Positions 2,744-64,000 of a DNA stretch of 64,000 bases are shown here, piece by piece (the first letter of the stretch is position 1; each line of letters starts with the position of its first letter). The notes beneath the pieces were generated by a model. The model did not search any database. It was not told the DNA's origin and saw only the letters and a program-made list of their open reading frames with translations. A program made the translations under genes and the position numbers. Source of the stretch: an uncultured Prolixibacteraceae bacterium (GTDB taxonomy: Bacteria; Bacteroidota; Bacteroidia; Bacteroidales; FEN-979); contig CAYUZX010000012.1 of assembly GCA_964449285.1 (NCBI GenBank), forward strand, positions 150 to 64,149. The letters run 5' to 3'.

Positions 2744-4084
2744 ATGAAATTCACCAAAATCCTTTTCCTTCTGGCAACTAGCCTGCTGCCCTCCTTCAGC
2801 TTCTCCCAGGCGCCCCCTCCCCAGGTTATTTCCATGGAGGAGTGCCTGAACCTGGCGGTGCAAAACAGCGTAAGGTTGCAGATCTCAGCCCTGGAACAAC
2901 AACGGCTGAGATACCAGTACCGCGAAACTATCGGACAGGGATTGCCCAACATCAACTTCAACGGAGCGTTCGACGACTACCTTGCCCTCCCTACCCAGTT
3001 GATCCCCGGTGAATTTTTCGGACAACCCGGCGAACTGATCCCTGTCCAGTTTGGGACCAGTTTTAACTTATCGGGATCCCTCGACGCCAGCCAGATCATC
3101 TACAACCAAACTTACCTGGTGGCGCTGAAGATCTCAAAACGGCTGCTGGAACAAAATACCCTGGAGAGTGAACGGATCGAAACCGATCTGGTAGCCGAAG
3201 TGGCAAAAGGGTTTTACCTGGCCCAAATCACAAAGAAACAGATCCAGAACCTGCGGTTTAATCTCGACAACCTGGATTCACTTTACAATATCGCGAAAAG
3301 CCAGTATGAATTCGGACTCATCACCGGGGTGGATGTGGACAGGATTAACGTAAACCGGCTGAACCTCCAAAGCTCTATCGACAACCTGGAAACCCTCTAC
3401 CAACAACAGCTCAGTATGCAGAAATACTTCATGGGGATCCCGGAAGAGCAGGAGATCGCTTTTCCCGATACGCTCGACATGCGGACGGTCACCTTGGATA
3501 CCTCAGGGAACCTGAACGACCATATCGACATCCGGATGATTGAAAAACAGAAGGAGATCGTGGAGACCAACCTGAAACTCGACCGCTCCTTCTATTACCC
3601 CTCACTCACCTTTATCGGAAGCGTCAACTACCTGAACCAGAGTAACACCTATTACCTCTTCGGCAATCCGACCGATTGGTTCAACACCAGCCTGATCGGT
3701 TTCCGGCTCAATGTTCCGGTATTCAACGGATTACAGAAACGGTCGAAGGTCAGCCAGACCAAAGTGCAACTTCAGCAGGTGAAGATCACCGAAAACGACA
3801 CCCGCAGGGTCCTCAGCATCCAGGCCAAGGATGCCGCACGGAAGCTGGATAATAGCATCACGACAGAATTACGCCAGCGGGAAAACGAAAAGCTGGCCGA
3901 ACGGGTCTATGCCGTCTCACAGGACCGGTACCAGAAAGGGATGATCCCGCTGACCGATATGCTCAATGCCGAAACCGCCCTCAGCGATGCGCAGCTGGGA
4001 CACATCAACGCCCTGGTGCAGATGAAGATCGCCGAGATTGACTACCTGAAGGCAAAAGGAACCCTGTTGGAGGTAGTGAAGTAG
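2744..4084 (+). CDS. TolC-family outer-membrane efflux protein
   Basis: The signal peptide is MKFTKILFLLATSLLPSFSFSQ. I moved the start to the internal ATG at 2744. The protein has an OEP-like two-repeat architecture and is the first gene of an OMP-MFP-RND operon. Confidence 0.85.
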   Translation: MKFTKILFLLATSLLPSFSFSQAPPPQVISMEECLNLAVQNSVRLQISALEQQRLRYQYRETIGQGLPNINFNGAFDDYLALPTQLIPGEFFGQPGELIPVQFGTSFNLSGSLDASQIIYNQTYLVALKISKRLLEQNTLESERIETDLVAEVAKGFYLAQITKKQIQNLRFNLDNLDSLYNIAKSQYEFGLITGVDVDRINVNRLNLQSSIDNLETLYQQQLSMQKYFMGIPEEQEIAFPDTLDMRTVTLDTSGNLNDHIDIRMIEKQKEIVETNLKLDRSFYYPSLTFIGSVNYLNQSNTYYLFGNPTDWFNTSLIGFRLNVPVFNGLQKRSKVSQTKVQLQQVKITENDTRRVLSIQAKDAARKLDNSITTELRQRENEKLAERVYAVSQDRYQKGMIPLTDMLNAETALSDAQLGHINALVQMKIAEIDYLKAKGTLLEVVK

Positions 4085-4117
4085 GTAGGAGGGTAAGAGG
4101 GTATGAGAGTGTGAATG
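4073..4117 (+). repeat. purine-rich period-8 imperfect tandem repeat spanning the stop codon
   Basis: The units are GTAGTGAA GTAGGTAG GAGGGTAA GAGGGTAT GAGAGTGT GAATG. The TAG stop (4082-4084) lies inside the second unit. Confidence 0.7.
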
Positions 4118-4130
4118 TTATATAAAAAAA

Positions 4131-4157
4131 TCTGTGGAATCTGTGGAATCTGCGGTG
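4131..4157 (+). repeat. 9-nt tandem repeat, 3 copies
   Basis: The units are TCTGTGGAA TCTGTGGAA TCTGCGGTG, in the intergenic region. Confidence 0.8.
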
Positions 4158-4207
4158 AAAATAAGAGTCAAACAAAATAAAATCGTGTTACCTACAAAAT
4201 AACTGCA

Positions 4208-5272
4208 ATGAAACGACTGATCATTATCTCAACGATTATCCTGGTACTGGTAGGAGCCTGCACGGTAACCCTGCTGTACAACAAAAAGCAGATTGACGAA
4301 AAAGCCAACCCGGATGTAGCCATTAAAAGCATCCCGGTCTTCGTGGAAGAGGCCGTGATGAAGCCGCTGAACGGCGATTTCTCCTACCAGGGAAGTTTTC
4401 AGCCGGTCCATGAGTTGCTGCTCCTTTCCGAAGGACAGGGGAAGGTGGAAAAGATCCTCTTTGAAACCGGGGATGAGGTGCAGGCCGGGCAGCTGCTGGC
4501 TTTGTTAGACGATGACCTGATTCGCAGTCAGCTCACCCTCGCGGAAGCCAACCTGGAGAAGATAGAGCGGGATATAGCGAAATACGAGGCCCTGCTGAAA
4601 AATGACGCCATCTCCTCGCAACAGGTTGAGGAAGCCCGCCTGGGCTTGATCAAGGCACAAACCGATGTGGTATCCCTCAAAAAGCAGCTTGATTATGCCT
4701 CCATCAAGGCACCGATCAACGGGACCATCACCAGTCGCTCGATTGAGATCGGCTCGGTGCTGATGCCGGGATCGCCGGTAACCAATATCGTCGACATCAG
4801 TCGGCTTCGGTTCATTGCCTTCATGTCGGAAGGGGAGGCCATCTATATCCATCGGGGAAGCAAGGTGGCGATCACCTCCACGCTCTTCCCGGGAATTACC
4901 TACCAGGGGCGGGTGATATCGGTTGGGGTACAAGCCGACGGCGCCAAACGGTTTCCGGTAGAGATCGATGTAGAGAATCGTCGCGATCATACCCTCAAGG
5001 CGGGGATGTTCGGCACGGCATTCTTTGAAGGAGTCAATGGGCACAGTGCCCTGGTCATCCCGCGAAATGCCCTCACCGGCAGTATCAAGGAACCAAAAGT
5101 CTTTGTAATACAGGGAGATACAGCCTATCTGAGGACGATCAGCCTGGGACAGGCCGACGACAACCTGGTGGAGGTTCTTCACGGAATGAACTCCGGTGAA
5201 AAGGTGGTTGTGTCGGGGCAGATAAATCTGGAAAACAGATCCGTCGTGACTGTGGTTAATCATTCGAAATAG
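4208..5272 (+). CDS. RND efflux periplasmic adaptor (membrane fusion protein)
   Basis: It has an N-terminal membrane anchor, a coiled-coil hairpin (LTLAEANLEKIERDIAKYEALL) and beta-barrel segments. It sits between the OMP and the RND pump. Confidence 0.9.
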   Translation: MKRLIIISTIILVLVGACTVTLLYNKKQIDEKANPDVAIKSIPVFVEEAVMKPLNGDFSYQGSFQPVHELLLLSEGQGKVEKILFETGDEVQAGQLLALLDDDLIRSQLTLAEANLEKIERDIAKYEALLKNDAISSQQVEEARLGLIKAQTDVVSLKKQLDYASIKAPINGTITSRSIEIGSVLMPGSPVTNIVDISRLRFIAFMSEGEAIYIHRGSKVAITSTLFPGITYQGRVISVGVQADGAKRFPVEIDVENRRDHTLKAGMFGTAFFEGVNGHSALVIPRNALTGSIKEPKVFVIQGDTAYLRTISLGQADDNLVEVLHGMNSGEKVVVSGQINLENRSVVTVVNHSK

Positions 5273-5280
5273 CTATTGCC

Positions 5281-8200
5281 ATGAACATTACACAACTCTC
5301 TATCAAACGGCCCACGTTGGTCGTTGTGGTCTTCGCAGTACTTACTTTTCTGGGACTAATCAGCTATTTCCAGCTCAACTACGAGCTGCTGCCTAACTTC
5401 TCCCAACCGGTATTGGTTGTGGTCACCCCATACCCGGGCGCCTCTCCGGCGGAAGTGGAAAATTCGGTAACAAAAAAAATTGAGGATGCGGTGAGCAGCC
5501 TGGAAGACATCGACAACATCCAGAGCACTTCCTACGAAGGGAACTCTGTGGTTGTGATCATCTTCAAGAGTTCGGCCGACATGGAAAAGGCGACGGACAA
5601 TGCCACCATGAAGGTCAGGAACATCGAATACCTTCTTCCCAGGGATGCCAGAACACCCCTCATCACCAATTTCAGCATGAGTGATATCCCGATCATCCGG
5701 CTTGGGGTGACCGCCAACCTGCCGGCTACAGAACTCTATGACCTGGTAAAGAACAAGGTGAAGCCCATGGTCAGTACGATCAATGGCATATCACAGGTCG
5801 ACATGTTGGGAGGCGAGGAGCGGGAGGTGCGCATCAACATAGACAACGAGAAGCTGAAAGCCCACCGCCTCTCCATCCTGCAGGTGACCGAAGCGATCCG
5901 TATGGCCAATATGGAATTCCCTACAGGCAAGATCAAGGATCCGTCGCGGCAGGTGATCATCCGGTTGGCAGGAAAATTTTCCTCCCTGGAAGATCTCCGC
6001 AACCTGGTGATCTATACCACCCATGAAGGCAGTCCGGTAAAGCTGGAGGATGTAGCCGAAGTGGAGGATACCAAGAAAGAGACCACTAGCATCAGTCGCA
6101 TCGACGGCATCAATTCGGTGGGATTGCTGATTTTCAAGCAGCCCGACGGCAACGAGGTGGAGATCTCCCGCAAGGTGAAGGAGACAATGGTGATAATGGA
6201 AGATATCTATGCTGCAGAAGGGCTCGAGTTCTCCGTAGCCAACGACTCCTCTGAATTTACCCTCACTTCGGCCAACCATGTGATGCGCGACCTCCTGCTG
6301 GCCATCATGCTGGTAGCGATGGTGATGCTGGTGTTCCTGCACAGCCTTCGGAACTCCTTCATCGTGCTGGTGGCTATCCCGGCTTCGTTGATCTCGGTAT
6401 TCACAGCCATGTACCTATTCAATTTCTCACTCAACATCATCTCGATGGTGGCCATCGCCCTGGTTATCGGGATCCTGGTAGACGATTCGATCGTGGTACT
6501 GGAGAACATCTACCGGCATCTGGAGATGGGAAAGGACCGAAGGCAGGCAGCGCTGGAAGGGCGGAACGAGATTTCCTATACCGCCCTCTCCATCACCATG
6601 GTCGACGTGGTAGTATTCCTTCCGATCGCGGTAATCACCAGTATGATCTCGGGTATGCTCCGGCAGTTTGCCCTGGTGGTGGTGTTCGCGACCCTGATGA
6701 GTCTGTTTGTATCCTTCACTGTCACCCCATTGCTTGCCTCCCGGATTGCCAAACTTGAACGGTTCCGCAAAGGGGGACTGCTGGAGCGTTTTATCCAGGC
6801 GTTCGAACGCGGACTGAAGAGCTTTACGATGGGATATTCTGAGGTGATTGCCTGGTCGTTGCGCCACAAAGCCATCGTCCTGATTGGGGCCACGGCGCTC
6901 TTCATTGCTTCCGTATCCCTGGTTGTTGGCGGGTTTATAGGAAGCGAGTTCGTTAGCATGGGCGACCGCGGGGAGGTGATCATCCAGATGGAGCTGCCCA
7001 AGAGTGCTACCATCGAACAAACCAACCAGCTGACCCTGGATGCGGAAAACTTCGTGATGAGCCAGCCCGAAGTGACCAGCATCTTCACCACCGTAGGTTC
7101 CTCCACCAGTTTCTTCGGCGGTGGGTTGACGGCCTACATGTCAGAAATGCACATCAAGATGGTGGAGAAAGAGAAACGGAACATCACCTCCGAGCATTTT
7201 GCCCTGCAGATGAAAAAGGACCTGATGAACCGTATTCCGGGGATCAAGGTGCGGTCAACCATCGTATCGATGATGGGGACTTCCGATATGGATCCCATCA
7301 TGGTGGTGCTGAGCGGTCCCAATCCGGATGTGCTGAATCACTGGGCCGACGAGGTGATGAACGAGATGCGGAAGGTCCCCGGAGCCTATGAAGTGAAACT
7401 TTCTGTGGAACCCGGTAATCCCGAGGTGGAAGTCGTGCTGGACAAGGAGAAGATGGCGGAACTAGGATTGTCGACGGCGATGGTAGGGATGACCCTGCAG
7501 AATGCATTCTCGGGCAACACCGATGCTAAATTCAGGGATGGCGACAACGAATACGACATCAACGTGGTACTGGACCAGTTCAACCGGAAAAGCATCCAGG
7601 ACATCGCTTCCCTCTCCTTTATCAACGCCCTTGGACAGGAGATCCGGCTGAGCCAGTTTGCCACCCTGAAGCCGTCGGGAGGCACCAATGTGCTGCAGCG
7701 TTACAACCGCGTGTCGTCGGTTACGGTGCAGTGCCAGGTGATCGGTCGTCCGGTCGGATCGGTCGGCGAGGATGTCATGAAGCGTGTCAATGCCATGGAA
7801 TTACCCAGTGAGGTGATCGTCATCCCCGAAGGGGATATGAAATACCAGACCGAGGCCTTCGGCAGCATGGGACTGGCATTCCTGGCTTCGATCCTCTTCG
7901 TCTACCTGATCATGGTGGCGCTGTATGACTCCTACGTGGATCCATTCGTGGTCCTCTTCTCCATCCCGCTTGCCATCATCGGGGCCCTGCTGGCGCTGGC
8001 GCTTACCATGCAATCACTAACCATCTTCTCTATTTTGGGGATGATCATGCTGGTGGGGCTCGTCGGGAAGAATGCCATTTTGCTGGTCGATTTCACCAAC
8101 CAGTTGAAGCGTGAAGGGCATTCAACCTACGATGCCCTCATTGAAGCCGGAAAGGTAAGGATGCGTCCCATCCTGATGACCACCCTTTCGATGATCTTTG

Positions 8201-11103: not shown

Positions 11104-11580
11104 TCAGGCATCCGGCATCAGACTCGCAATCAACGGCCACGCACAAGCGGCCAGCAGTGCCAGTGTCAGCAATAGCCGGAGCGCATTCTTCACCGACCGG
11201 TTTTTCGTCGCGAAGATGTCCCAGGTATGAATCATCGCGGAGATTATGAAGAAGATGAGCGTGGCGATTAGAATCGTGGCATCGGCATAGAGGCCCCAAT
11301 TGAAGATGAAGACCAACGTCGCTGTGATGGCAAAAGCCAGGTTGGCGCCTCCCGACTGCTTCTGGTACCGCGGATCAGCCTCCCTTCCCATCGACCCGGC
11401 AGATGCCTTTCCGAAGAAGAGGCCTTCGATACCGGTTAGTCCAGCCATGACGACGATGACGAAGAAGCTCAAATAATGAAGGGTTGTTTTTGGATCACCG
11501 TTGCCCAACTGATAGGCAAAAAAGATCCCGGCGCAGATGCCGGTGATCCTGGACCATTCGAATAATTTTGGAGTATTCAT
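11104..11580 (-). CDS. hypothetical integral membrane protein
   Basis: A 158-aa ORF with 4-5 hydrophobic helices. I recognise no motif. Confidence 0.55.
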   Translation of the reverse strand: MNTPKLFEWSRITGICAGIFFAYQLGNGDPKTTLHYLSFFVIVVMAGLTGIEGLFFGKASAGSMGREADPRYQKQSGGANLAFAITATLVFIFNWGLYADATILIATLIFFIISAMIHTWDIFATKNRSVKNALRLLLTLALLAACAWPLIASLMPDA

Positions 11581-11759
11581 ATGAAGCGTGGTGTAAATGA
11601 CTATAAATGTTAAGGGACTCTGCAGCTGAAAAACACGACAGGCATGATATAGCCTAAGTAAAGGAAATAGTTAATCTTCATTGGTTGGGGCAGAAATCAA
11701 GTTAAGGTTTTCATGAGTTTAAAATAACAAAATTATAGTATAAATTTGCTGCGTCGATC

Positions 11760-11834
11760 GGGACGTTAGCTCAGTTGGTTCAGAGCGCTGCCTTCACACG
11801 GCAGAGGTCACTGGTTCGAATCCAGTACGTCCCA
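11760..11834 (+). tRNA. tRNA-Val (anticodon CAC)
   Basis: I folded the cloverleaf by hand. The acceptor stem is GGGACGT/ACGTCCC, the D arm is GCTC..GAGC, the anticodon stem is CTGCC/GGCAG with loop TTCACAC, and the T arm is ACTGG-TTCGAAT-CCAGT. The discriminator is A and CCA is not encoded. Confidence 0.9.
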
Positions 11835-11839
11835 CGCCT

Positions 11840-55564: not shown

Positions 55565-56566
55565 TTATTGAACATAATCGTAACCCATGATCTGAGCGTC
55601 GTTGAAGACGGTCATTCCAGCGGTTACCATGTCGTCGTGAGCCAGGCCATTCATTCCATAGAGGAGCGATTTAGCATCATACCCCAATAAACGGAGGTAG
55701 GCAGCCAGGAACGAACTGGTTTGTCCGGTATAGCAATAGACAGCAATGGGCTTGTTGGTTGGTAGTGTTTTCAGATCAGCAGCCAGTTTGATAGATGCTT
55801 TAGGTGTGTATTGAATGGCGCCTGGAACATGTCCGAAATCGGCATATTGATCGGCCGGCCAATAGTTAACGATGTAGTAATTGGCAAGGTTATCAAAAAG
55901 CGTTTTATTATCAACTTTGGCTGGGCCATATCCTTCGGCCAGTAAAGCCGCAATACGTGCTTCCAGGATCTCCTGTCCGGTGGTCTTCCCTGTGGAGAGT
56001 GCCGGCATGTTACCCATTGGGCCTTTATCGGTGGCTGTCTTAACAAGTTGGGTAGCATAAGTATTGCCAATGGCATTCTGCCATCCGGAAGCAAATGCTG
56101 CATTCCAGGAGCACATACCCCACTTCATCGAAAAGACTTTAGCATATCCAGCTATCCGAAGCAGGAGGGCAGCAAAACCCGCCGTTTGTCCTGAATAACA
56201 TACAATGACCACTTTTTGATAAGGTGTTTGGTCCAATGCATCGACATGAGTCAGGATATCTCCCAATGCAACGTTATGGGCATTAGCGATATGACCGGTT
56301 GCAAAATCGGCAGCCGACCGGATGTCAATGATATAAACCTGGCCGATTAGATTGAGTGTATAAACATCGGTAGCGCTCGTTATCGATGGCATATCACTGT
56401 TTACATAATCTTTCCCAAGGGGCGAGCTGGTAGACTCCAGGAAGGTAGCTAACACTTCCGATTCATTTACCGTCGGGGTTGGAACTGGATCGTCATCTTT
56501 TTTACATGAGGTAACAAAGACAAATGCGAACAGGATACTTAGGATCCATAAATTTGTTTTTTTCAT
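55565..56566 (-). CDS. tandem-rhodanese-domain lipoprotein (sulfurtransferase-like)
   Basis: The lipobox is VTSC, followed by KKDDD. There are two rhodanese active-site loops, CYSGQTAG and CYTGQTSS. Confidence 0.8.
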   Translation of the reverse strand: MKKTNLWILSILFAFVFVTSCKKDDDPVPTPTVNESEVLATFLESTSSPLGKDYVNSDMPSITSATDVYTLNLIGQVYIIDIRSAADFATGHIANAHNVALGDILTHVDALDQTPYQKVVIVCYSGQTAGFAALLLRIAGYAKVFSMKWGMCSWNAAFASGWQNAIGNTYATQLVKTATDKGPMGNMPALSTGKTTGQEILEARIAALLAEGYGPAKVDNKTLFDNLANYYIVNYWPADQYADFGHVPGAIQYTPKASIKLAADLKTLPTNKPIAVYCYTGQTSSFLAAYLRLLGYDAKSLLYGMNGLAHDDMVTAGMTVFNDAQIMGYDYVQ

Positions 56567-56623: not shown

Positions 56624-57979
56624 TTATCTGAACCAAGAGTCCGGTAACTTTCCATCGACCGTAATCTTTGCTGTTGCGCCAACTTCCCATGCGAGAAGGT
56701 CTTCCTGGAAGAGGTACAACTCTTTGTTGACCAACGTGCCTCCCTCGTTACGGATATGGCAGTTAAAGGAGCAAGCTTTTCCATCGGTCACCTGGGTATG
56801 GTCGGTCCACCGCAGCAAGTTATGGGGAGTAGTGTAGTTGTAGGTAGGCAGAATATTAAAATTGGCATATTGTGGAGCGCCGTATAAATCCCAGTTGTCC
56901 TGAGCTGCCAGGGTACGCCGTACGAGGGCGAAGTCAAATCCCGTTTTGATCCCGGGGATTGGGTTGGATGCAATTTTGAAATCCATATAGGAAGGAATGC
57001 GGGCTCCTTCTCCATGGATATGGCAGCTTCCGCAGTTGTTGTATACCTGAGAATGGCATACCTGGCAGTTGAAATCGTTAAAGTGCATCAAGTGATAGCT
57101 GTTGCTGCCCGATATTCCTTTGTGGCAGTCATTACAGGAAGGAAGATTCGCATAAGCGTAACGTTGTTCAACATGGTTTCCATCTCCGTGAAGGTCGGTG
57201 GACTTGTGACAATCTATGCATGTGTATCCTGCTTTCGTTAGATGGACATCGGGTTTAGTACCTGGAGAGACGCCCAAATAGGCATGTCCGCCTCGCGAAA
57301 CATGGCAGGTAACACATATGCTTATCATATCCGGTGTTTTGGTGAATGCATGGCCGTTGGGAAGACCGCCCCCACCCATAACAGGACGAACCACGTGGCA
57401 TTCGCCGCAGGATGCGTGGCAATGTGCACAATTTTTATTATAGCCTTCGATCTGGTGTTCGGGAAGTTGATCGAATTTATCAGGGCCGCTTAATCCACTT
57501 CGCATCGCTACCACTCTTTTCTGACCGGTACCATGGTGCAAACTGGTCGCAAAGTTCTCTACGATTGCCTTGTGGCACGCGCCGCACATCTTATTTGCAA
57601 ATACGGAAGGGTGAGAGATGAAGTCGCCTGAGTGTGCAAGATTTTTATCGTTGGTATAGTTGGTTCCCAGGTGGCACCCGGTACATCCGATCTGGTAATG
57701 TCCGGATGTTTTGAAAGCTTGATAGCCATCTCCTCCCATGAATACCCTATCGTAGGGTTCATAATGGGGAGCACCTCCACCGCACCCCCCTGGAGGAGCA
57801 GCTGTATCGGGAGTATAGACAGCCTGGAGATGGGCATAATTGGTATGGCACCCTTCACAGGATGCAACCGTAAGGGAATCCGGCTCAGGATCGGAACTTT
57901 TTTTCTTGCATCCACCAAGGATGATTAATGCCAGCAAAACCGGTATCCACAGTAGTTTTGTCTTCGAAAGTAGTAGCAT
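56624..57979 (-). CDS. decaheme c-type cytochrome lipoprotein
   Basis: The lipobox is LGGC. Ten CxxCH motifs are present: CEGCH, CTGCH, CGACH, CAHCH, CGECH, CVTCH, CIDCH, CNDCH, CQVCH and CGSCH. One CxxxCH (CSFNCH) follows, and the last roughly 110 aa are heme-free. Confidence 0.85.
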   Translation of the reverse strand: MLLLSKTKLLWIPVLLALIILGGCKKKSSDPEPDSLTVASCEGCHTNYAHLQAVYTPDTAAPPGGCGGGAPHYEPYDRVFMGGDGYQAFKTSGHYQIGCTGCHLGTNYTNDKNLAHSGDFISHPSVFANKMCGACHKAIVENFATSLHHGTGQKRVVAMRSGLSGPDKFDQLPEHQIEGYNKNCAHCHASCGECHVVRPVMGGGGLPNGHAFTKTPDMISICVTCHVSRGGHAYLGVSPGTKPDVHLTKAGYTCIDCHKSTDLHGDGNHVEQRYAYANLPSCNDCHKGISGSNSYHLMHFNDFNCQVCHSQVYNNCGSCHIHGEGARIPSYMDFKIASNPIPGIKTGFDFALVRRTLAAQDNWDLYGAPQYANFNILPTYNYTTPHNLLRWTDHTQVTDGKACSFNCHIRNEGGTLVNKELYLFQEDLLAWEVGATAKITVDGKLPDSWFR

Positions 57980-58140: not shown

Positions 58141-58163
58141 TAATCTTGAACGACGAAACCAAG

Positions 58164-58859
58164 ATGGATATTAAAGAACAGTACACCGGTTGTACAATCA
58201 GTCCTCACAAATGCAGATGCTTTGAAATGCTGACGGAGGAAGAGATAAAGCTAATGGATTCCAGATCGGTAATAGTGAAATATAAAAAGGGTGAGATCAT
58301 CTGCAAGCAGGGCAGTTTTGCTTCTCACGTGATGTATATGGAAAATGGATTGGCTAAGGTATTTATCGACGACGGCGTAAACTCATTGGTACTGAAGATC
58401 ATCCCGGAGGGAAACCTGCTCGGGCTATCATCTCTGAGTAATGAAAACAATAAATTCCTCTATTCTGCAATGGCTTATATCGATTCTGACGTCAAGCAAG
58501 TCGATATTAATTATTTCAAGCAATTGCTGTCTCAAAATCCTGCATTCTCAAAAGAGGTCATCGACATTATGGGTTCTAACAGCACACAGATTAATAGTCG
58601 CTTTTTTTGCCTTACACATAAGCAGTCGTATGGCCGGCTGGCCGATATTCTCCTCTGTATCTCCGACCGTATATTTAAAACTGATGAGTTCGTTTTGCCG
58701 CTCTCTCGCAAAGACCTTGCCGAATTATCGGGGATGAGTTCGGAAACCGTCATCCGGATGCTGAAAAAATTCCATGATGATGGATTGATCCTTCTTGATG
58801 GCAAAAAATTCAAAATCCTGGATTACGACCGCCTGAAACGCGTTAGCGAGACAGGATAA
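58164..58859 (+). CDS. Crp/Fnr-family transcriptional regulator with an N-terminal Cys cluster
   Basis: It has a cNMP-binding-like beta-roll and a C-terminal HTH (RKDLAELSGMSSETVIRMLKKF). The N-terminus is MDIKEQYTGCTISPHKCRCF, with Cys10, Cys17 and Cys19. Confidence 0.85.
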   Translation: MDIKEQYTGCTISPHKCRCFEMLTEEEIKLMDSRSVIVKYKKGEIICKQGSFASHVMYMENGLAKVFIDDGVNSLVLKIIPEGNLLGLSSLSNENNKFLYSAMAYIDSDVKQVDINYFKQLLSQNPAFSKEVIDIMGSNSTQINSRFFCLTHKQSYGRLADILLCISDRIFKTDEFVLPLSRKDLAELSGMSSETVIRMLKKFHDDGLILLDGKKFKILDYDRLKRVSETG

Positions 58860-59046: not shown

Positions 59047-60726
59047 ATGCAGCTGTTTAGCAAGGATTACCGGGCCTTAGGCTATTTGTGGAGATACATC
59101 AAGCCATTCAGGAAAAAATTTCTTTTCCTGAATATTCTCTCGCCCATCTATTCCGCACTTGCCGGTGCTTACTTTCTCTTTATTAAAAGATTACTTGACG
59201 ATGGATTTCTGGCCAACAATACCCAGGAAATCGGGATAACCCTGCTGATCCTTTTTGGGATTTTCTTTGCCCAAACGTTGATTGATCTACTCCAAACCTA
59301 CCTGCAAAACAAGACCATCAACACGATTACGATTGATATCAAAGACAGGTTATTCGATGCAGTTATTTCCAATTACAGGGCCATCCGTACCAGGCAGCAG
59401 GCCGGTGAAATTTTGTCAAGATTTTATATCGATACCGGCAATTTTATCACCCTGATAAATATCCTTTCCCTGGAATTTATCAAACAGCTGTTTACCCTGG
59501 TTTCCATTATAGGAGTGCTCTTCTATCTGAACTGGAAATTTGCCCTCATTCTTTTCCTGGCCTATCCTCTGTTTATCCTCCCATTGATAAAACTCGGCCA
59601 CTGGTTACGGAATCTCAGTCAGCATTACATGCACGCCTATGGAAGATCAAACAGCATACTGTATGAATCATTATATGGATACCTTATTATCAAGACCTAT
59701 AACCTGATTGATCATTTCAAGGAAAAATATAGGGCCAGCAATGAAAAACTGCTCAATAATTTACTCCGATCCACCCTTATTTCGAAACTGGTTGGGCCGA
59801 TCAATGACCTGGCCTCTTTCGTTGGACTGGGACTGATTCTATATTTTAGTATTTCCCAGGTGCAATCAGGCAGCCTTACGGTTGGCAGTCTTGTAGCATT
59901 TCTTGTGGCCTTGATGAAGTTCTATCAACCTGCCAAAGCCCTTTTCAATCTGTATAATTCTATGCAATCGGCATTCCCCGGATACATCCGGTTGAAGAGC
60001 ATGCTGGAATCTCATCAGGATACGTTAAGAAATGAAGAAACCCAGACTGCATTCTTCCATGAGCACCTGGAACTCAAACATGTCACCTTCTCCTACGACA
60101 GCCAGAAAATGATCCTCGATGATGTAAGCCTAACGGTGAAAAAAGGAGAGAAGGTGGCTATTATAGGCCGAACCGGCGCCGGGAAGTCAACCCTTATCAG
60201 TCTTTTGCTTGGCCTGATTCAGCCGGGAAAGGGGGATATCCTGATTGATGGAAAAAGGTATCAGGAGTTGAACAGGGAGAGTATCTTCAGCCTGTTCTCT
60301 TACATTTCCCAGGAACCCATCCTCTTCAATGATTCGATCCGATACAACATTCAGTTAGGAAAACTATCAAGTTCGGCGGATGAGCTGATTGAGGCCAGTA
60401 AAAAAGCACAGCTGCACTCCTTTATTTCGAACATTCAGGATGGATACGATACCCTTGTGGGAGACAGGGGTGATATGATATCGGGCGGTGAAAGACAACG
60501 GATTACGATTGCGAGGGCTCTGTTGAGAAATGCGCCCATCATCATTTTTGACGAAGCCACATCCTCGCTGGATTATGAAACTGAATCGGATATAAAGGAA
60601 GCAGTGTTTAAGTTGTCAGCTGACAAAACACTCATCATCATTACTCACAGGCTTACCACGCTGAAGGGGGTAGACAAAGTATACAACATCAAGGATGGTA
60701 AACTTGTGGAATCAAATTGGGAATAG
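59047..60726 (+). CDS. ABC exporter, fused permease and ATPase (MsbA / peptide-exporter type, no peptidase domain)
   Basis: It has six TM segments, Walker A GRTGAGKST, the signature ISGGERQR and Walker B IIIFDEATS. Confidence 0.9.
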   Translation: MQLFSKDYRALGYLWRYIKPFRKKFLFLNILSPIYSALAGAYFLFIKRLLDDGFLANNTQEIGITLLILFGIFFAQTLIDLLQTYLQNKTINTITIDIKDRLFDAVISNYRAIRTRQQAGEILSRFYIDTGNFITLINILSLEFIKQLFTLVSIIGVLFYLNWKFALILFLAYPLFILPLIKLGHWLRNLSQHYMHAYGRSNSILYESLYGYLIIKTYNLIDHFKEKYRASNEKLLNNLLRSTLISKLVGPINDLASFVGLGLILYFSISQVQSGSLTVGSLVAFLVALMKFYQPAKALFNLYNSMQSAFPGYIRLKSMLESHQDTLRNEETQTAFFHEHLELKHVTFSYDSQKMILDDVSLTVKKGEKVAIIGRTGAGKSTLISLLLGLIQPGKGDILIDGKRYQELNRESIFSLFSYISQEPILFNDSIRYNIQLGKLSSSADELIEASKKAQLHSFISNIQDGYDTLVGDRGDMISGGERQRITIARALLRNAPIIIFDEATSSLDYETESDIKEAVFKLSADKTLIIITHRLTTLKGVDKVYNIKDGKLVESNWE

Positions 60727-60734
60727 GTAAATCC

Positions 60735-61274
60735 ATGCCGATTGATTATACTACTGAGATGATCCTGGCGCTTGACATCCTGAATGTCAACGGATATTTG
60801 TGGACACGCGTCAAGGCAGATAATTCGGCTCCTTTGATCAGGGAAGGGGATATGATCTGTCTGAAGAAATGTGGGAAGGAATTAAAAAAGGGGGATCTCG
60901 TCGCGGTGGATTACCATAAAATATTTATCATTCAGCGAATCATCGAAATCGATGGGGATACCGTTTACACCAAGGCCGACCACTCCGAGAAAGGTCCCTT
61001 CAGCCAGGAGATCGGGAACATTGCAGGGAAGGTGGCCTATATTAAAAAGGAGAAAAACCTGGTGAATATTGACAATCCCATCTGTGACCTGATTCACTTG
61101 CTTATCATATGGTTATCAGTAGGACGGAGCAAAGTCAACACCGCCAGTGGCTTTTTCTACCGTAAATTTTTTCATAAACTGAGAAGATCAATGCTAAAAC
61201 GGATTTTGAAACTGGAACTCATTATTGGTAAAAAATATGCGAAAAACGTTGATCCCGGATTACAAATCCCCTGA
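60735..61274 (+). CDS. S24/S26 signal-peptidase-like protein, apparently degenerate
   Basis: It aligns by eye with the 62468 ORF (VKADNSAPLIREGD against VKADGHSMNPFIKKGD). It reads SAP where SMxP is expected, FIIQRII where FIHRIL is expected, and KADHS where KGDN is expected. It overlaps the neighbouring genes. Confidence 0.5.
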   Translation: MPIDYTTEMILALDILNVNGYLWTRVKADNSAPLIREGDMICLKKCGKELKKGDLVAVDYHKIFIIQRIIEIDGDTVYTKADHSEKGPFSQEIGNIAGKVAYIKKEKNLVNIDNPICDLIHLLIIWLSVGRSKVNTASGFFYRKFFHKLRRSMLKRILKLELIIGKKYAKNVDPGLQIP

Positions 61275-62475
61275 ATTTCAGCGTCTGAATAAACTATTCA
61301 ACCTGCTTTCTCATTACCGGGAAGGCGAAATCAGAGAACATATCCCACTGATCAGCCGGTTCGAAATCAGCCAGTATTACCTGGCATTGCTAGATAAACA
61401 ACTGGCCAGCGAACCCGAGGTTGTTTCGCAGTTGGAAAGGCACCGAAAGGAGATCCTGTTCAACAACCTCTATTACCTCAATCATGCGTCCCGCCTGATT
61501 TTACAGTTGAAAGAGAAGAACATCGATTGCATTGTACTGAAAGGGCTCTCTTTTATCAATCATCTCTATGACGATATCGGGTTGCGATCGTTTTGTGACC
61601 TCGATTTGATGATCCACAGGGAGGATGTGAGAAGATTTCTTGAGATCGTTCAACAAGAGGGATTCATGTTGAAATGTGAAGTGAACGATCCCGACAATAC
61701 GGATGATTTCGACATCTACAATGAGCAAACAAAGCTCAAGGTAGATATTTTGACTACGTTAACAGGAGGCTACTATTTTAACCGCTATTTCGCCCTGGAC
61801 CTTTCACAGGTATGGGAACGGAAAAAGCAGCTGAAAATCCAGGAGACGGAAACGTTCCGGTTAAGTGAAGAAGACGAACTCTTGTATGCCATTGTTCACC
61901 TTGCTTTTCACCTTAATTTTCATGTCGAAATCAAATGGTTCTTTGATCTCTGGTACTACATGGAGAAATACGGAGATTCTCTTGACAGGAAGTATCTCAA
62001 TGAAAAGGTGAGAAAAGCCGGACTTGAAAACGTCATTTTTGCAGTCACGGAGGTCATGTACTGGATGTTTAACAAAGATTATACAGCCATTTTTGGAAGC
62101 GTCAAACCCCGTTTTCATATCTTTGACAGGATCTGGGTCAGCTTTTACACATTTCCTCCCCGGCTGTTCGGGACCAGCCTTGAATTTCCTGGTGTCGTAA
62201 ACAGAATGGCGATCACCTTCATGAAATATACCCTGATTGCATCCCCAAAGAAAAAATGGAAGTTTGTGACCGACCGGGTTTTCCCCGACTTTGACAGGAT
62301 TACCTTTGCGTATACGCAGAAGTTCAGGATTCCCCTGAAAATCTATTATCCTATGATCTACATGCTATTCCTGCTGTTATCGCCTGTTTTTCTGACCTCT
62401 CTCTTAGCGATTTTCCTGGTTTCCACACTCTATATAAAGATAATCCTTTTCAAGCATCAGTTTCTGCATGGATGA
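61237..62475 (+). CDS. nucleotidyltransferase family protein (PF14907 / NTP_transf_5-like)
   Basis: IVLKGLSFINHLYDDIGLRSFCDLDLMIHREDVRRFLEIVQQEGF fits the LKG ... R.f.DlDlLv ... G pattern of the uncharacterised nucleotidyltransferase family. A hydrophobic C-terminal helix is present. Confidence 0.6.
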   Translation: MRKTLIPDYKSPEFQRLNKLFNLLSHYREGEIREHIPLISRFEISQYYLALLDKQLASEPEVVSQLERHRKEILFNNLYYLNHASRLILQLKEKNIDCIVLKGLSFINHLYDDIGLRSFCDLDLMIHREDVRRFLEIVQQEGFMLKCEVNDPDNTDDFDIYNEQTKLKVDILTTLTGGYYFNRYFALDLSQVWERKKQLKIQETETFRLSEEDELLYAIVHLAFHLNFHVEIKWFFDLWYYMEKYGDSLDRKYLNEKVRKAGLENVIFAVTEVMYWMFNKDYTAIFGSVKPRFHIFDRIWVSFYTFPPRLFGTSLEFPGVVNRMAITFMKYTLIASPKKKWKFVTDRVFPDFDRITFAYTQKFRIPLKIYYPMIYMLFLLLSPVFLTSLLAIFLVSTLYIKIILFKHQFLHG

Positions 62476-62977
62476 CCTTACCGGCATAAAATTAGAGCTG
62501 GTCGCAAACCACTTACTTTTAGGTCATTCCGTAAAAGTGAAGGCTGACGGTCATAGCATGAATCCGTTCATCAAAAAGGGAGATATCCTCACGGTGAAGG
62601 GAATCATCAATGATCCGCTACATCCGGGAGAGATGGTTGCCTTTATCCGCAATGAACTCCTGTTTATCCACCGGATTCTGGAGGCTGGACGGGCTGATGG
62701 AATGGTGCTGACAAAAGGAGATAACCTGTTGATATCAGATAAGTTGTCGAAGTCGGAAGAGATCATCGGCAGGGTGATCGCAATCAATGATACATCTGTG
62801 ACCTCCCGAAGTCCTATTCATCGTCTGTTTTTTCAACTATACCGGTTTTGTTTATTGGCAGGTAATAGTTCAAATACCATTGAGAACCAGGGGATCATCC
62901 AACTTTCTATCAGTCCTTTTCGGTTCAGGATCAGCAGGATTATCCTACGGGTCTATAGGTTTTTCGTTTTTCAATGA
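62468..62977 (+). CDS. S26B (SipW/Sec11-type, Ser-His) signal-peptidase-like protein without an N-terminal TM anchor
   Basis: It has GHSMNP (Ser30), FIHRIL (His68) and TKGDN (Asp85) in the order and spacing of archaeal/ER-type signal peptidases. The ATG overlaps the upstream stop. Confidence 0.55.
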   Translation: MDDLTGIKLELVANHLLLGHSVKVKADGHSMNPFIKKGDILTVKGIINDPLHPGEMVAFIRNELLFIHRILEAGRADGMVLTKGDNLLISDKLSKSEEIIGRVIAINDTSVTSRSPIHRLFFQLYRFCLLAGNSSNTIENQGIIQLSISPFRFRISRIILRVYRFFVFQ

Positions 62978-63016
62978 TTTGTTTTCTTATTTTTGACGAC
63001 CTAAAAAACGTAGGAT

Positions 63017-63904
63017 ATGAGCGATATTCACCACCATTTACTAGAGGACTATTTCCGTGATGTAAATAACAGGGGCCTTGAGAATTTCAATCTTAAGATA
63101 GGCGGAATCGGCCTTTCGGTACATGCCATCAGGGATGAGTTGTTTGATACGGCGCTGACCAAGTACAAAGATTTTCTTACACCGGAAGAGTTCCCCGAGT
63201 CCGTTGACTTTTATGATGTACAAACCCTCGCTCAGCCGGAAGCCATCATCCAGGCGTTTGATACCTACAAAGAGATTTATACGACATCTTCGAACCGCCA
63301 TCTGAATGTCTATCGCTGGGACTTTTTCGGAATCATTGATATTGCTGCCCGAACCGGTAAATTCATCCTGTTCAACAATACGTTCATGACGTATGAGTCC
63401 ATTATCAGGATTTTTTATTCCCTGCTGGCCGTCGAAAATCATGGATTCTTAATACACTCATCCTCCCTGATACATAACACGAAAGGCTATGTCTTTTTTG
63501 GCATATCAGGCAGTGGAAAATCCACCGTAGTAAAGCTTTCAGAGTCGGATGAATGCCTCACCGATGAACTCACGTTGATTACAAAGGATCAGACCGGATA
63601 TATTACCGCAGGAACCCCTTTTCATGGAGAACTTCCCATATATATGAACAAGGCGGCAAGTCTGGCCAATTTGTTTCTATTAACGAAATCTGAAACGACT
63701 TACTTCCGTAAAATGAACCGGTCGGAGATTTATCCTATCCTGTTGCGGAACGTTCTGTTTTTCAGCGATGACTGGGAACTCAGGCAAAAGATATTTAACA
63801 CTGTGATCGACCTCGCCAACCAGGTAGATATTTATGAAATGAATTTTGAGAAAAACAATAAATTCTGGAGGATCATTGATAATGGATTTAAAAATGAAAA
63901 TTAA
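63017..63904 (+). CDS. HPr-kinase-like P-loop protein (HprK-related kinase)
   Basis: GFLIHSSSLIHNTKGYVFFGISGSGKSTVVKL ... LTDELTLI matches the HprK C-terminal-domain pattern (LHA..v...g.gvli.G.SG.GKS ... DD). Confidence 0.6.
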   Translation: MSDIHHHLLEDYFRDVNNRGLENFNLKIGGIGLSVHAIRDELFDTALTKYKDFLTPEEFPESVDFYDVQTLAQPEAIIQAFDTYKEIYTTSSNRHLNVYRWDFFGIIDIAARTGKFILFNNTFMTYESIIRIFYSLLAVENHGFLIHSSSLIHNTKGYVFFGISGSGKSTVVKLSESDECLTDELTLITKDQTGYITAGTPFHGELPIYMNKAASLANLFLLTKSETTYFRKMNRSEIYPILLRNVLFFSDDWELRQKIFNTVIDLANQVDIYEMNFEKNNKFWRIIDNGFKNEN

Positions 63905-64000
63905 ACGAAATGCGAAAAGCTCGTTTCAAATTGCCGATGGAAAAGCGGTTGTCATGCTGGCTGTGAACTCAAATATCTTCACGCTGAATGAGATTGGAAC
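63894..64000 (+). CDS. PqqD-family (RiPP recognition element-like) protein, 5' part only
   Basis: My own translation is MKIKRNAKSSFQIADGKAVVMLAVNSNIFTLNEIG. It fits the PqqD pattern (..e.dGe.vl.d...g..y.LNe.g). It overlaps the upstream gene by 11 nt and is cut by the window end. Confidence 0.5.
   Translation, partial: MKIKRNAKSSFQIADGKAVVMLAVNSNIFTLNEIG

Follow-up and report, generated by a model that had tools for sequence, protein, structure and literature searches.

The window analysed here, a 64,000-nucleotide stretch of contig CAYUZX010000012.1 from an uncultured Prolixibacteraceae bacterium, ends in a cluster of tightly packed genes (59047-64000) that probably represents the first six genes of a ten-gene module for a peptide that is made by the ribosome and modified after translation (RiPP), carried by a Bacteroidota genome related to the Prolixibacteraceae. 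The module is taken, with good but not full confidence, to comprise an ATP-binding cassette (ABC) exporter, a degenerate type I signal peptidase (SpI), a PF14907 enzyme, an active SpI, a kinase, a RiPP recognition element (RRE), a radical S-adenosylmethionine (SAM) enzyme with a SPASM domain, a 53-aa precursor and a sulfotransferase. The cluster is likely to make a small modified peptide that is exported, through a pathway resembling that of the linear polyphosphorylated peptides (LPPs) with an added class-defining radical SAM cross-linking step; given that step, the product is probably not linear. A preliminary description of the window, made from its sequence, had read the operon as RiPP-like and had placed both the core-forming enzyme and the precursor outside the window, and both views are borne out by the precursor, RRE and radical SAM/SPASM genes that were found to continue the cluster downstream.

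The + strand of 59047-64000 holds six co-oriented, tightly packed open reading frames (ORFs), all located where the preliminary description had placed them, and each of the family assignments made there (ABC, S26-like, PF14907, HprK-like, PqqD) was upheld by hidden Markov model (HMM) searches. The series begins with an MsbA-like, half-size ABC exporter similar to LppD (59047-60726; PF00664, PF00005, TIGR02203), followed by a degenerate, soluble 179-aa paralogue of the ER/archaeal-type signal peptidases (60735-61274; weak PF00717/PF10502) and by a nucleotidyltransferase-fold enzyme of the PF14907 (NTP_transf_5) family, similar to LppN and PsmN, with a DLDL metal-binding box (61237-62475; 135.6 bits). 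Next come an active-looking, soluble 169-aa SpI of the SipW/SEC11 type, similar to LppS (62468-62977; TIGR02228, 42.6 bits), a ScmC-family P-loop protein with the HprK/phosphoenolpyruvate carboxykinase (PEPCK) fold, similar to LppK (63017-63904; TIGR04249, PF27840), and the first 39 codons of a 92-aa discrete RRE of the PqqD type (63882-64000; PF05402), the remainder of which lies past the window end. Start/stop overlaps had been proposed at four junctions; three of them are real (61237/61274, 62468/62475, and 63882 or 63894/63904), but the fourth, 60717/60726, reflects the earliest TTG, whereas the orthologues and the gene caller use the ATG at 60735, so that 8 nt separate the two genes.

Extension of the contig past position 64,000, as suggested in the preliminary description, gave the rest of the cluster. 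The exact window kinase protein is encoded on 22 public contigs, the longest of which (L001, JGI Ga0265595_1000202) reaches 10 kb past the window end; window coordinates equal L001 coordinates plus 53016. On this contig the complete PqqD gene (L001 10866-11144), which overlaps the kinase stop codon, is directly followed by a gene for a 350-aa radical SAM/SPASM maturase (window-equivalent 64162-65214), the gene for the 53-aa precursor (65311-65472) and a PF13469/PF00685 sulfotransferase gene (65615-66523), after which lie convergent genes without an obvious tie to the module. The neighbourhoods of homologs, whose comparison had also been suggested, again contain genes for a small precursor and for peptide-modifying enzymes in L008, L087, L088 and L090. 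All ten genes recur in the window's order in a 76% relative (L090), at a third genomic site, and L008 shows the same order over nine complete genes and an ABC exporter gene cut by the contig end. In L087 and L088, whose kinase is 53% identical, the same ten genes stand among different genomic neighbours in a rotated order (kinase, PqqD, radical SAM, small ORF, sulfotransferase, ABC, SpI-a, PF14907, SpI-b). Since the genes recur with a kinase only 53% identical, in rotated order and in another neighbourhood, their association is not due to chance; the rotated order between different neighbours, together with the third site in L090, moreover indicates that the ten genes form one mobile functional module. 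The nearest named genomes to the locus are Prolixibacteraceae and Bacteroidales metagenome-assembled genomes.

The 53-aa ORF (MENKIETPSKWDKPMIEVKEIFEKTALACDGSPFNNAQVNNKASAGTCGYYYS) is always placed between the maturase and sulfotransferase genes, and no model in Pfam or NCBIfam matches it. Its five variants have in common W-x-KP-[MV]-IE-x-KEIFEKTAL-x-CDGS, followed by a variable middle and by CGY[YW][YF]S just before the stop codon, and their pairwise ratios of non-synonymous to synonymous polymorphism (pN/pS) of 0.09-0.36 argue for a real gene under purifying selection. The leader (WDKPMIEVKEIFEKTALACDGS) shows WxxP and P-x7-F-E-K-T, with no Ser at +3, and the peptide as a whole has two invariant Cys residues.

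Two genes that are expected to act on such a peptide are physically joined, as the radical SAM gene begins 1 nt past the PqqD stop codon and the pair stays joined in L087 and L088. The full PqqD protein scores 50.8 bits with PF05402 and has NF033536 (lasso_PqqD_Bac, 37.4 bits) as its top NCBIfam model. Compared with published RREs, it comes closest to a paeninodin-like one of the WxxP type from Bacillus (WP_114345259, 36.5 bits), versus at most 26.3 bits with LPP RREs. The radical SAM enzyme carries a CX3CX2C motif and a seven-Cys SPASM domain, and its closest solved relatives are the peptide maturases SkfB (nearest, 60.9 bits), PqqE, SuiB and CteB; its NCBIfam hits, led by AhbD, NirJ2, MftC, WgkB and ScmE, all remain well under cut-off. 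Like the systems of the sactipeptide and ranthipeptide maturases (SkfB, AlbA, CteB, PapB), the cluster thus combines a seven-Cys SPASM domain, a Cys-bearing precursor and a PqqD-type RRE. It differs from them in having its RRE as a protein of its own, not as an N-terminal domain, and in that the similarity is low and under all cut-offs; those classes, moreover, have neither kinase nor SpI, and thioether chemistry is suggested for this cluster by analogy. Two metagenome variants of the contig (L004 at 11486-11638, and L005 at the same position) carry a 153-bp insertion that splits the maturase gene at window-equivalent position ~64501; it has 17-bp terminal inverted repeats (ATAGATTATCACGGTAA...TTACCGTGATAATCTAT) and a GTTTAA duplicated at both ends. 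No copy of its repeat occurs within the window. The insertion resembles an element of the miniature inverted-repeat transposable element (MITE) type and would knock out the maturase in some members of the population.

The kinase protein ranks highest in NCBIfam with TIGR04249 (ScmC, 30.8 bits), ahead of HprK_rel_A and HprK_rel_B (~19 bits), its best hits being TIGR04249, TIGR04352 and TIGR04355, and has PF27840 (ScmC) as its precomputed Pfam hit. It contains the P-loop GISGSGKS, and H147, G162xSGxGK168(S/T) and D183 are invariant across ten family members. With its AlphaFold model (predicted local distance difference test, pLDDT, 87; predicted template modelling score, pTM, 0.86), Foldseek retrieved ATP-dependent PEPCK and HPr kinase/phosphorylase at a probability of 1.0, and a PDB profile search concurs with this likeness over the P-loop region. 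PF07475 (Hpr_kinase_C) gave no hit in the protein at E<=0.1, which makes it HprK-like in fold and in its P-loop, His and Asp motifs without being an HPr kinase/phosphorylase. The HprK-like P-loop kinase of the preliminary description is hence retained as to fold and motifs, but not as a canonical HprK, ScmC/PF27840 being closer. By analogy with LppK, 63017-63904 is predicted to encode a peptide Ser kinase. A literature search for ScmC returned only unrelated acronyms.

The two SpI paralogues differ in their catalytic residues. The product of 62468-62977 matches Peptidase_S24 at 28.5 bits in addition to the archaeal-type SPase I model TIGR02228, aligns with the human SEC11A catalytic subunit (7p2p, E 2.4e-5) over GHSMNP, IHRIL and TKGDN..SD, and has Ser30, His68 and Asp91 in alignment with S29, H68 and D93 of LppS. 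The product of 60735-61274 matches Peptidase_S24/S26 weakly (24.5 and 20.5 bits); aligned with its active paralogue and with LppS-type SpIs, it reads ..DNSAP.., ..IIQRI.. and ..TKADHSEKGPF.., and so it retains the fold signature but has lost the catalytic His to Gln and the catalytic Asp to Pro. This double replacement is present in 6/6 Bacteroidota loci and nowhere else, and S/H/D/D is kept in 47/58 SpI-like ORFs of other loci. Ser-His boxes had been claimed for both peptidases; the claim stands for 62468-62977 and falls for 60735-61274. Judged by sequence, only one of the two SpIs looks catalytically competent, and the degenerate one, its catalytic His replaced by Gln and its catalytic Asp gone, is probably a pseudo-peptidase or an adaptor. 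Hydropathy analysis revealed no transmembrane segment in either protein, and neither is therefore regarded as a secretory signal peptidase. The active paralogue is instead inferred, by analogy with LppS, to be an RRE-dependent leader peptidase. Leader removal by an S26-type enzyme instead of a lasso B protease, as the preliminary description had envisaged, has a direct experimental precedent in LppS, an RRE-dependent SpI (PMC13381572).

The exporter matches PF00664 at 140 bits and PF00005 at 110 bits, with MsbA (TIGR02203, 367 bits) as its top NCBIfam model, and HMM searches found no C39 peptidase domain in it. The PF14907 protein has a C-terminal hydrophobic anchor (residues ~373-411 of the 416-aa ORF; hydropathy maximum 2.61). 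A PDB sequence search with it gave no match, and a literature search on PF14907 yielded only a phosphonate paper. In the lasso peptide pseudomycoidin, PsmK phosphorylates the C-terminal Ser, and the PF14907 protein PsmN is needed to put one or two hexoses on the resulting phospho-Ser (PMC6993621). The closest solved relatives of the sulfotransferase are the CurM sulfotransferase and also the protein-tyrosine sulfotransferases TPST1/2. RaxX is a tyrosine-sulfated RiPP, and RaxST is its sulfotransferase. As in that system, a PF13469/PF00685 sulfotransferase here adjoins a precursor with a Tyr-rich segment, with TPST1/2 among its nearest solved structures; the top solved match is nevertheless CurM rather than a TPST, and the sulfation target is putative.

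The closest known counterpart of the cluster as a whole is the LPP system of Bacillota (lppA-K-B-S-D-N), described in May 2026 by a study that had set out from an archaeal-type SpI (Popov et al., Nat Commun 2026; PMC13381572). Its core consists of the SpI LppS, the discrete RRE LppB, the HprK-like kinase LppK, the NTP transferase LppN and the MsbA-like pump LppD (PMC13381572). With this publication, the statement of the preliminary description that such a combination was uncharacterised no longer applies. The same five-family core is present here, and the models hit are identical to those of the LPP domain table, namely TIGR02228, PqqD, TIGR04249/04352/04355 ('HprK kinase'), NTP_transf_5 and TIGR02203 ('MsbA transporter') (PMC13381572). 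LPP precursors bear the motif YxxPxVLxHQxIxFETxxS; LppK adds one to four phosphates to core Ser3; LppS, which is SipW-like, cuts after F-3/E-2/T-1 only with LppB and is dead as S29A, H68A or D93A; an unphosphorylated precursor is cleaved poorly; and deletion of LppN brought no change in the heterologous host (PMC13381572). The triad positions of the window SpI are nearly those of LppS, and this SpI too is soluble and without a secretory role. In the window precursor, too, a hydrophobic-F-E-x-T stretch comes after a [Y/W]xxP leader.

The cluster departs from the LPPs in several respects. While the SpI with its triad, the discrete RRE, the HprK-like kinase, the NTP_transf_5 enzyme and the MsbA-like exporter are all shared, LPPs have no cross-linking, class-defining enzyme, and here a radical SAM/SPASM enzyme joined to the RRE gene is conserved with the module, as are a sulfotransferase and a second, degenerate SpI. 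In the leader, WxxP with P-x7-FEKT is found where LPPs have YxxP with Px9Fx[T/A], the core has two Cys, a terminal Ser and no FETxxS, and the host belongs to the Bacteroidota. New relative to the LPPs are the radical SAM/SPASM enzyme, the sulfotransferase, the pairing of an active with a dead SpI, the Bacteroidota host and the WxxP leader. The LPP paper states that SpI peptidases were previously unseen in RiPP pathways and that LPPs are restricted to Bacillota; it makes no mention of radical SAM, SPASM or Bacteroidota LPPs, has Sulfotransfer_3 once in its data, and lists in a supplementary table unstudied SpI-RRE pairs in Dehalobacter, Brocadia, Acidobacteria and Bacteroidota, of which the Bacteroidota entries are SpI-ABC fusions (PMC13381572).

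The wider family was surveyed from the kinase outwards. A kinase profile search returned 785 representatives at E<1e-30 among 1.84 billion proteins, and 160 further loci were obtained from pattern scans of species genomes and JGI metagenomes; word-indexed protein searches retrieved close relatives only, in 17 clusters for the kinase, 10 for the active SpI and 3 for the precursor. Gene content was counted with iterated HMMs in the 47 loci having at least 5 kb on either side of the kinase gene: PqqD was present in 39, an SpI-like protein in 26, a radical SAM/SPASM enzyme in 24, PF14907 in 13 and the ABC exporter in 11, and the sulfotransferase occurred in only the 3 Bacteroidota loci. For precursors, a first regular expression for WxKP-type peptides found no match outside Bacteroidota, and a broadened small-ORF search for a [YW]x[KR..]Px-hydrophobic motif separated two precursor types. 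Type A peptides (e.g. MKKTYEKPAIIHSEEIEARAVTCSKMDNMSCAGGPVTS) have at least two Cys after the leader. Of the 34 unique candidates, which probably include a few spurious ones, 30 have a radical SAM gene no more than 3 kb away, and 23 end in Ser, versus 11% of background ORFs. Type B peptides (e.g. ...YNKPLIIHEFELETRAGSP...; 18 unique) are Cys-free, show an LPP-like hydrophobic-E-[TV]-x-A-G-[ST] junction and in no case (0/18) adjoin a radical SAM gene. The presence of a radical SAM gene hence tracks two-Cys precursors. The window precursor belongs to type A and has Trp for Tyr, a substitution that fits the RRE, since this is closest to WxxP-type RREs.

Cys-free YxKPxIxHExxLE[TV]xAG[ST]P precursors were observed in Chloroflexota and other non-Bacillota loci that have a ScmC-like kinase and no radical SAM gene (L013, L018, L023, L030, L036, L037, L044, L053, L057, L059-L061, L073, L079, L080, L129, L132 and L150), and those of them with enough context usually also hold PqqD and SpI. 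Because these precursors closely match the leader-core junction of LPPs, LPP-type systems appear, as far as such sequence matches can tell, to occur outside Bacillota as well.

These counts bear on the alternative that survives best, although it is still unlikely: that the cluster is a plain LPP-type pathway for a linear (poly)phosphorylated, possibly glycosylated peptide, the radical SAM and sulfotransferase genes being unrelated neighbours or their products having some other target. The exact match of its five core families to the published LPP core speaks for it, as do the LPP-like precursors held by Chloroflexota relatives without a radical SAM gene. A bystander, however, would not be expected to sit 1 nt after the PqqD stop codon and to be kept, along with the sulfotransferase, in the rotated L087 and L088 clusters; and across the family the radical SAM gene accompanies Cys-bearing precursors (30/34 vs 0/18), of which the window precursor, with its two invariant Cys, is one.

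A more improbable reading takes the cluster for a peptide-derived redox cofactor pathway of the pyrroloquinoline quinone (PQQ), mycofactocin or SynChlorMet type, whose small product would be kept in the cell. The leader is indeed PqqA-like (WxKPxh), the top NCBIfam hits, weak as they are, have MftC, PqqE, AhbD and ScmC/ScmD/ScmE among them, and the order of a ScmC-like gene, PqqD and radical SAM/SPASM recalls the SynChlorMet cassette (ScmC TIGR04249, ScmD TIGR04248, ScmE TIGR04250, ScmF TIGR04251). All scores are, however, far under the family cut-offs (ScmC 30.8/125, ScmD 24.1/100, ScmE 123.7/400, ScmF 60.8/400, as bits over equivalog cut-off), and there is a single radical SAM enzyme rather than the ScmE and ScmF pair, for which two reasons a strict SynChlorMet cassette was rejected. 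The SynChlorMet cut-offs were missed by every kinase and radical SAM enzyme tested, also by those of distant relatives in other phyla, and a literature search found no paper on the cassette. Follow-up enzymes of the PqqB/C or MftD/E/F type are absent within +/-10 kb, and a dedicated ABC exporter, a leader peptidase, a kinase, a PF14907 enzyme and a sulfotransferase, which set the module apart from SynChlorMet, are part of it, the exporter, peptidase, kinase and sulfotransferase genes moving with it. At one AT-rich metagenome locus (L168), tandem ScmC-like genes (3952-4779 and 6077-6877) flank a radical SAM/SPASM gene, and the opposite strand has another, divergent radical SAM gene, a layout nearer the two-maturase SynChlorMet arrangement.

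Less credible again is a paeninodin-type phosphorylated lasso cluster with its cyclase and B2 protease elsewhere in the genome. The tailoring enzymes of paeninodin and pseudomycoidin (PadeK/PsmK, PsmN and sulfotransferases) do have counterparts in the HprK-like kinase, the PF14907 enzyme and the sulfotransferase of the module, the precursor is Ser-terminal, and the RRE is of the WxxP type and closest to Bacillus lasso RREs (NF033536, 37.4 bits; WP_114345259, 36.5 bits). Among the genes called within 10 kb on either side in L001, L087 and L090, however, neither the asparagine-synthetase-like macrolactam synthetase (C) nor the transglutaminase-like B2 cysteine protease was present. The SpI, which would cut the leader, and the radical SAM/SPASM enzyme, the likely class-defining enzyme, fill the B2 and cyclase roles, and the module is self-contained at its new site. 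Least plausible of all is an operon that modifies envelope lipids or glycans (with an MsbA-like flippase, a nucleotidyltransferase, a sulfotransferase and an adjacent PAP2 phosphatase) and in which the small ORF is fortuitous. In its favour, MsbA is the best ABC model, PAP2 and GT9 genes lie downstream in L001, and LPP clusters in Bacilli lie within capsule loci (PMC13381572). The small ORF, however, is under purifying selection and always between maturase and sulfotransferase genes, the module includes a discrete RRE along with a radical SAM/SPASM enzyme of the peptide type, and the PAP2 and GT9 genes are missing from the L087 and L090 contexts. The lasso cluster, the strict SynChlorMet cassette, the cofactor pathway and the envelope operon were thus all dismissed as principal explanations.

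For the favoured LPP-like pathway with a cross-linking step, homology to tested systems suggests an RRE that binds a [Y/W]xxP leader, an HprK-like kinase that phosphorylates Ser, a soluble SpI that cuts the leader in an RRE-dependent way and an MsbA-like pump for export. The discrete PqqD protein would first bind the WDKPMI (WxxPxI) leader motif, as the homologous elements of lasso, LPP and PQQ pathways do. The radical SAM/SPASM enzyme would then cross-link the core, likeliest through the two conserved Cys as thioethers of the sactipeptide or ranthipeptide type, a role suggested by the association of radical SAM genes with Cys-bearing precursors and by the likeness to SkfB and CteB. Next, the ScmC/HprK-like kinase would add one or more phosphates to a conserved Ser. 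The invariant C-terminal Ser is the best candidate, being the only Ser conserved across type A and having a precedent in paeninodin and pseudomycoidin; a second choice is the Ser of CDGS. The membrane-anchored PF14907 enzyme might decorate the phosphate further, for example with a hexose like PsmN, and the sulfotransferase might, more speculatively, sulfate a hydroxyl, possibly in the C-terminal GY[YW][YF]S stretch. Once the RRE presents the leader, the triad-intact SpI, probably with its dead paralogue as an adaptor or partner, would cut near FEKT/ALA in the manner of LppS, in a register that is uncertain between FE-x-T, by LPP analogy, and a position after A-x-A just before Cys29. The MsbA-like pump would finally export the product.

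Several observations weigh against this interpretation. The kinase (30.8 bits versus a cut-off of 125), the RRE (24-37 versus 80-100) and the maturase (at most 159 versus 265-500) are far under all NCBIfam cut-offs, so that no curated equivalog reveals their function, and because the top maturase hits AhbD, NirJ2 and MftC are of haem or cofactor type, the chemistry may be other than thioether formation. The window precursor does not conform to the LPP leader motif YxxPxVLxHQxIxFETxxS, i.e. Px9Fx[T/A]; the phosphorylation site of LPPs is core Ser3, not a C-terminal Ser; LppN was without detectable activity in the LPP study; and the 153-bp insertion splits the maturase gene in some population variants. 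Where the phosphate is added, how the core is cross-linked, what is sulfated and where the leader is cut are all predictions.

More tentatively, the cluster may be a branch of a large, uncurated RiPP class found across phyla, with [Y/W]xKP two-Cys peptides that would be cross-linked by a radical SAM/SPASM enzyme, phosphorylated at a C-terminal Ser by a ScmC/HprK-like kinase, further decorated and released by a soluble SpI homologue, a cross-linked sister class of the LPPs. This class might span Chloroflexota, Acidobacteriota, Methylomirabilota, Nitrospirota, Bacteroidota and others, with a Bacteroidota branch that adds sulfation and a dead-peptidase adaptor. The literature searches returned no combination of HprK, radical SAM and RiPP, and the architecture is unmentioned in the works checked on Bacteroidales RiPP mining, graspetides (a survey), radical SAM enzymes (a compendium) and leader proteases (a review). 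SpI-type leader peptidases and polyphosphorylated peptides were new to the RiPP literature in 2026 and were described as Bacillota-restricted and linear; the ~160 related loci carry the same kinase/RRE/SpI toolkit into many other phyla, and about half of the 47 well-covered loci have a radical SAM/SPASM enzyme and a distinct two-Cys, Ser-terminated precursor family without a Pfam or NCBIfam model. The view of the cluster as a branch of such a broad family, linked to radical SAM genes, sister to the LPPs and with a precursor type of its own, is likewise new. If the proposal is true, orphan SynChlorMet-type ScmC proteins gain a function as peptide kinases, and LPP-type systems are not confined to Bacillota. 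The loci are compact targets for a new scaffold that would join cross-link, phosphate and sulfate, the Bacteroidota version being a ten-gene unit with a single precursor, and they offer a way into the function of the ScmC and PF14907 families and the role of a dead peptidase in leader processing. The result is still another RiPP variant from genome mining and brings no new biological principle.

Directly upstream of the exporter gene lies a gene for a Crp/Fnr-family regulator (58146-58859, + strand; PF13545, PF00027, PF00325), which may control the cluster locally. It is found upstream in L001 and L007, its place is taken by a histidine kinase in L090, and L087 has no Crp/Fnr regulator upstream and a LytTR two-component pair downstream of the module; the regulator is outside the conserved module. 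Scans for sigma-70 promoters and terminators gave signals at background level only and were not used, and PADLOC reported no defence-system match. The remainder of the 64-kb window resembles ordinary chromosomal coding sequence, with a tRNA-Val (CAC) gene (11760-11835, + strand), far from the locus, as the sole Rfam/ARAGORN hit. Just upstream of the cluster, on the - strand, a lipoprotein-like multihaem cytochrome of 451 aa with ~10 CxxCH motifs (56624-57979) adjoins a 333-aa lipoprotein with rhodanese domains (55565-56566), and the pair could be a sulfur or metal redox module.

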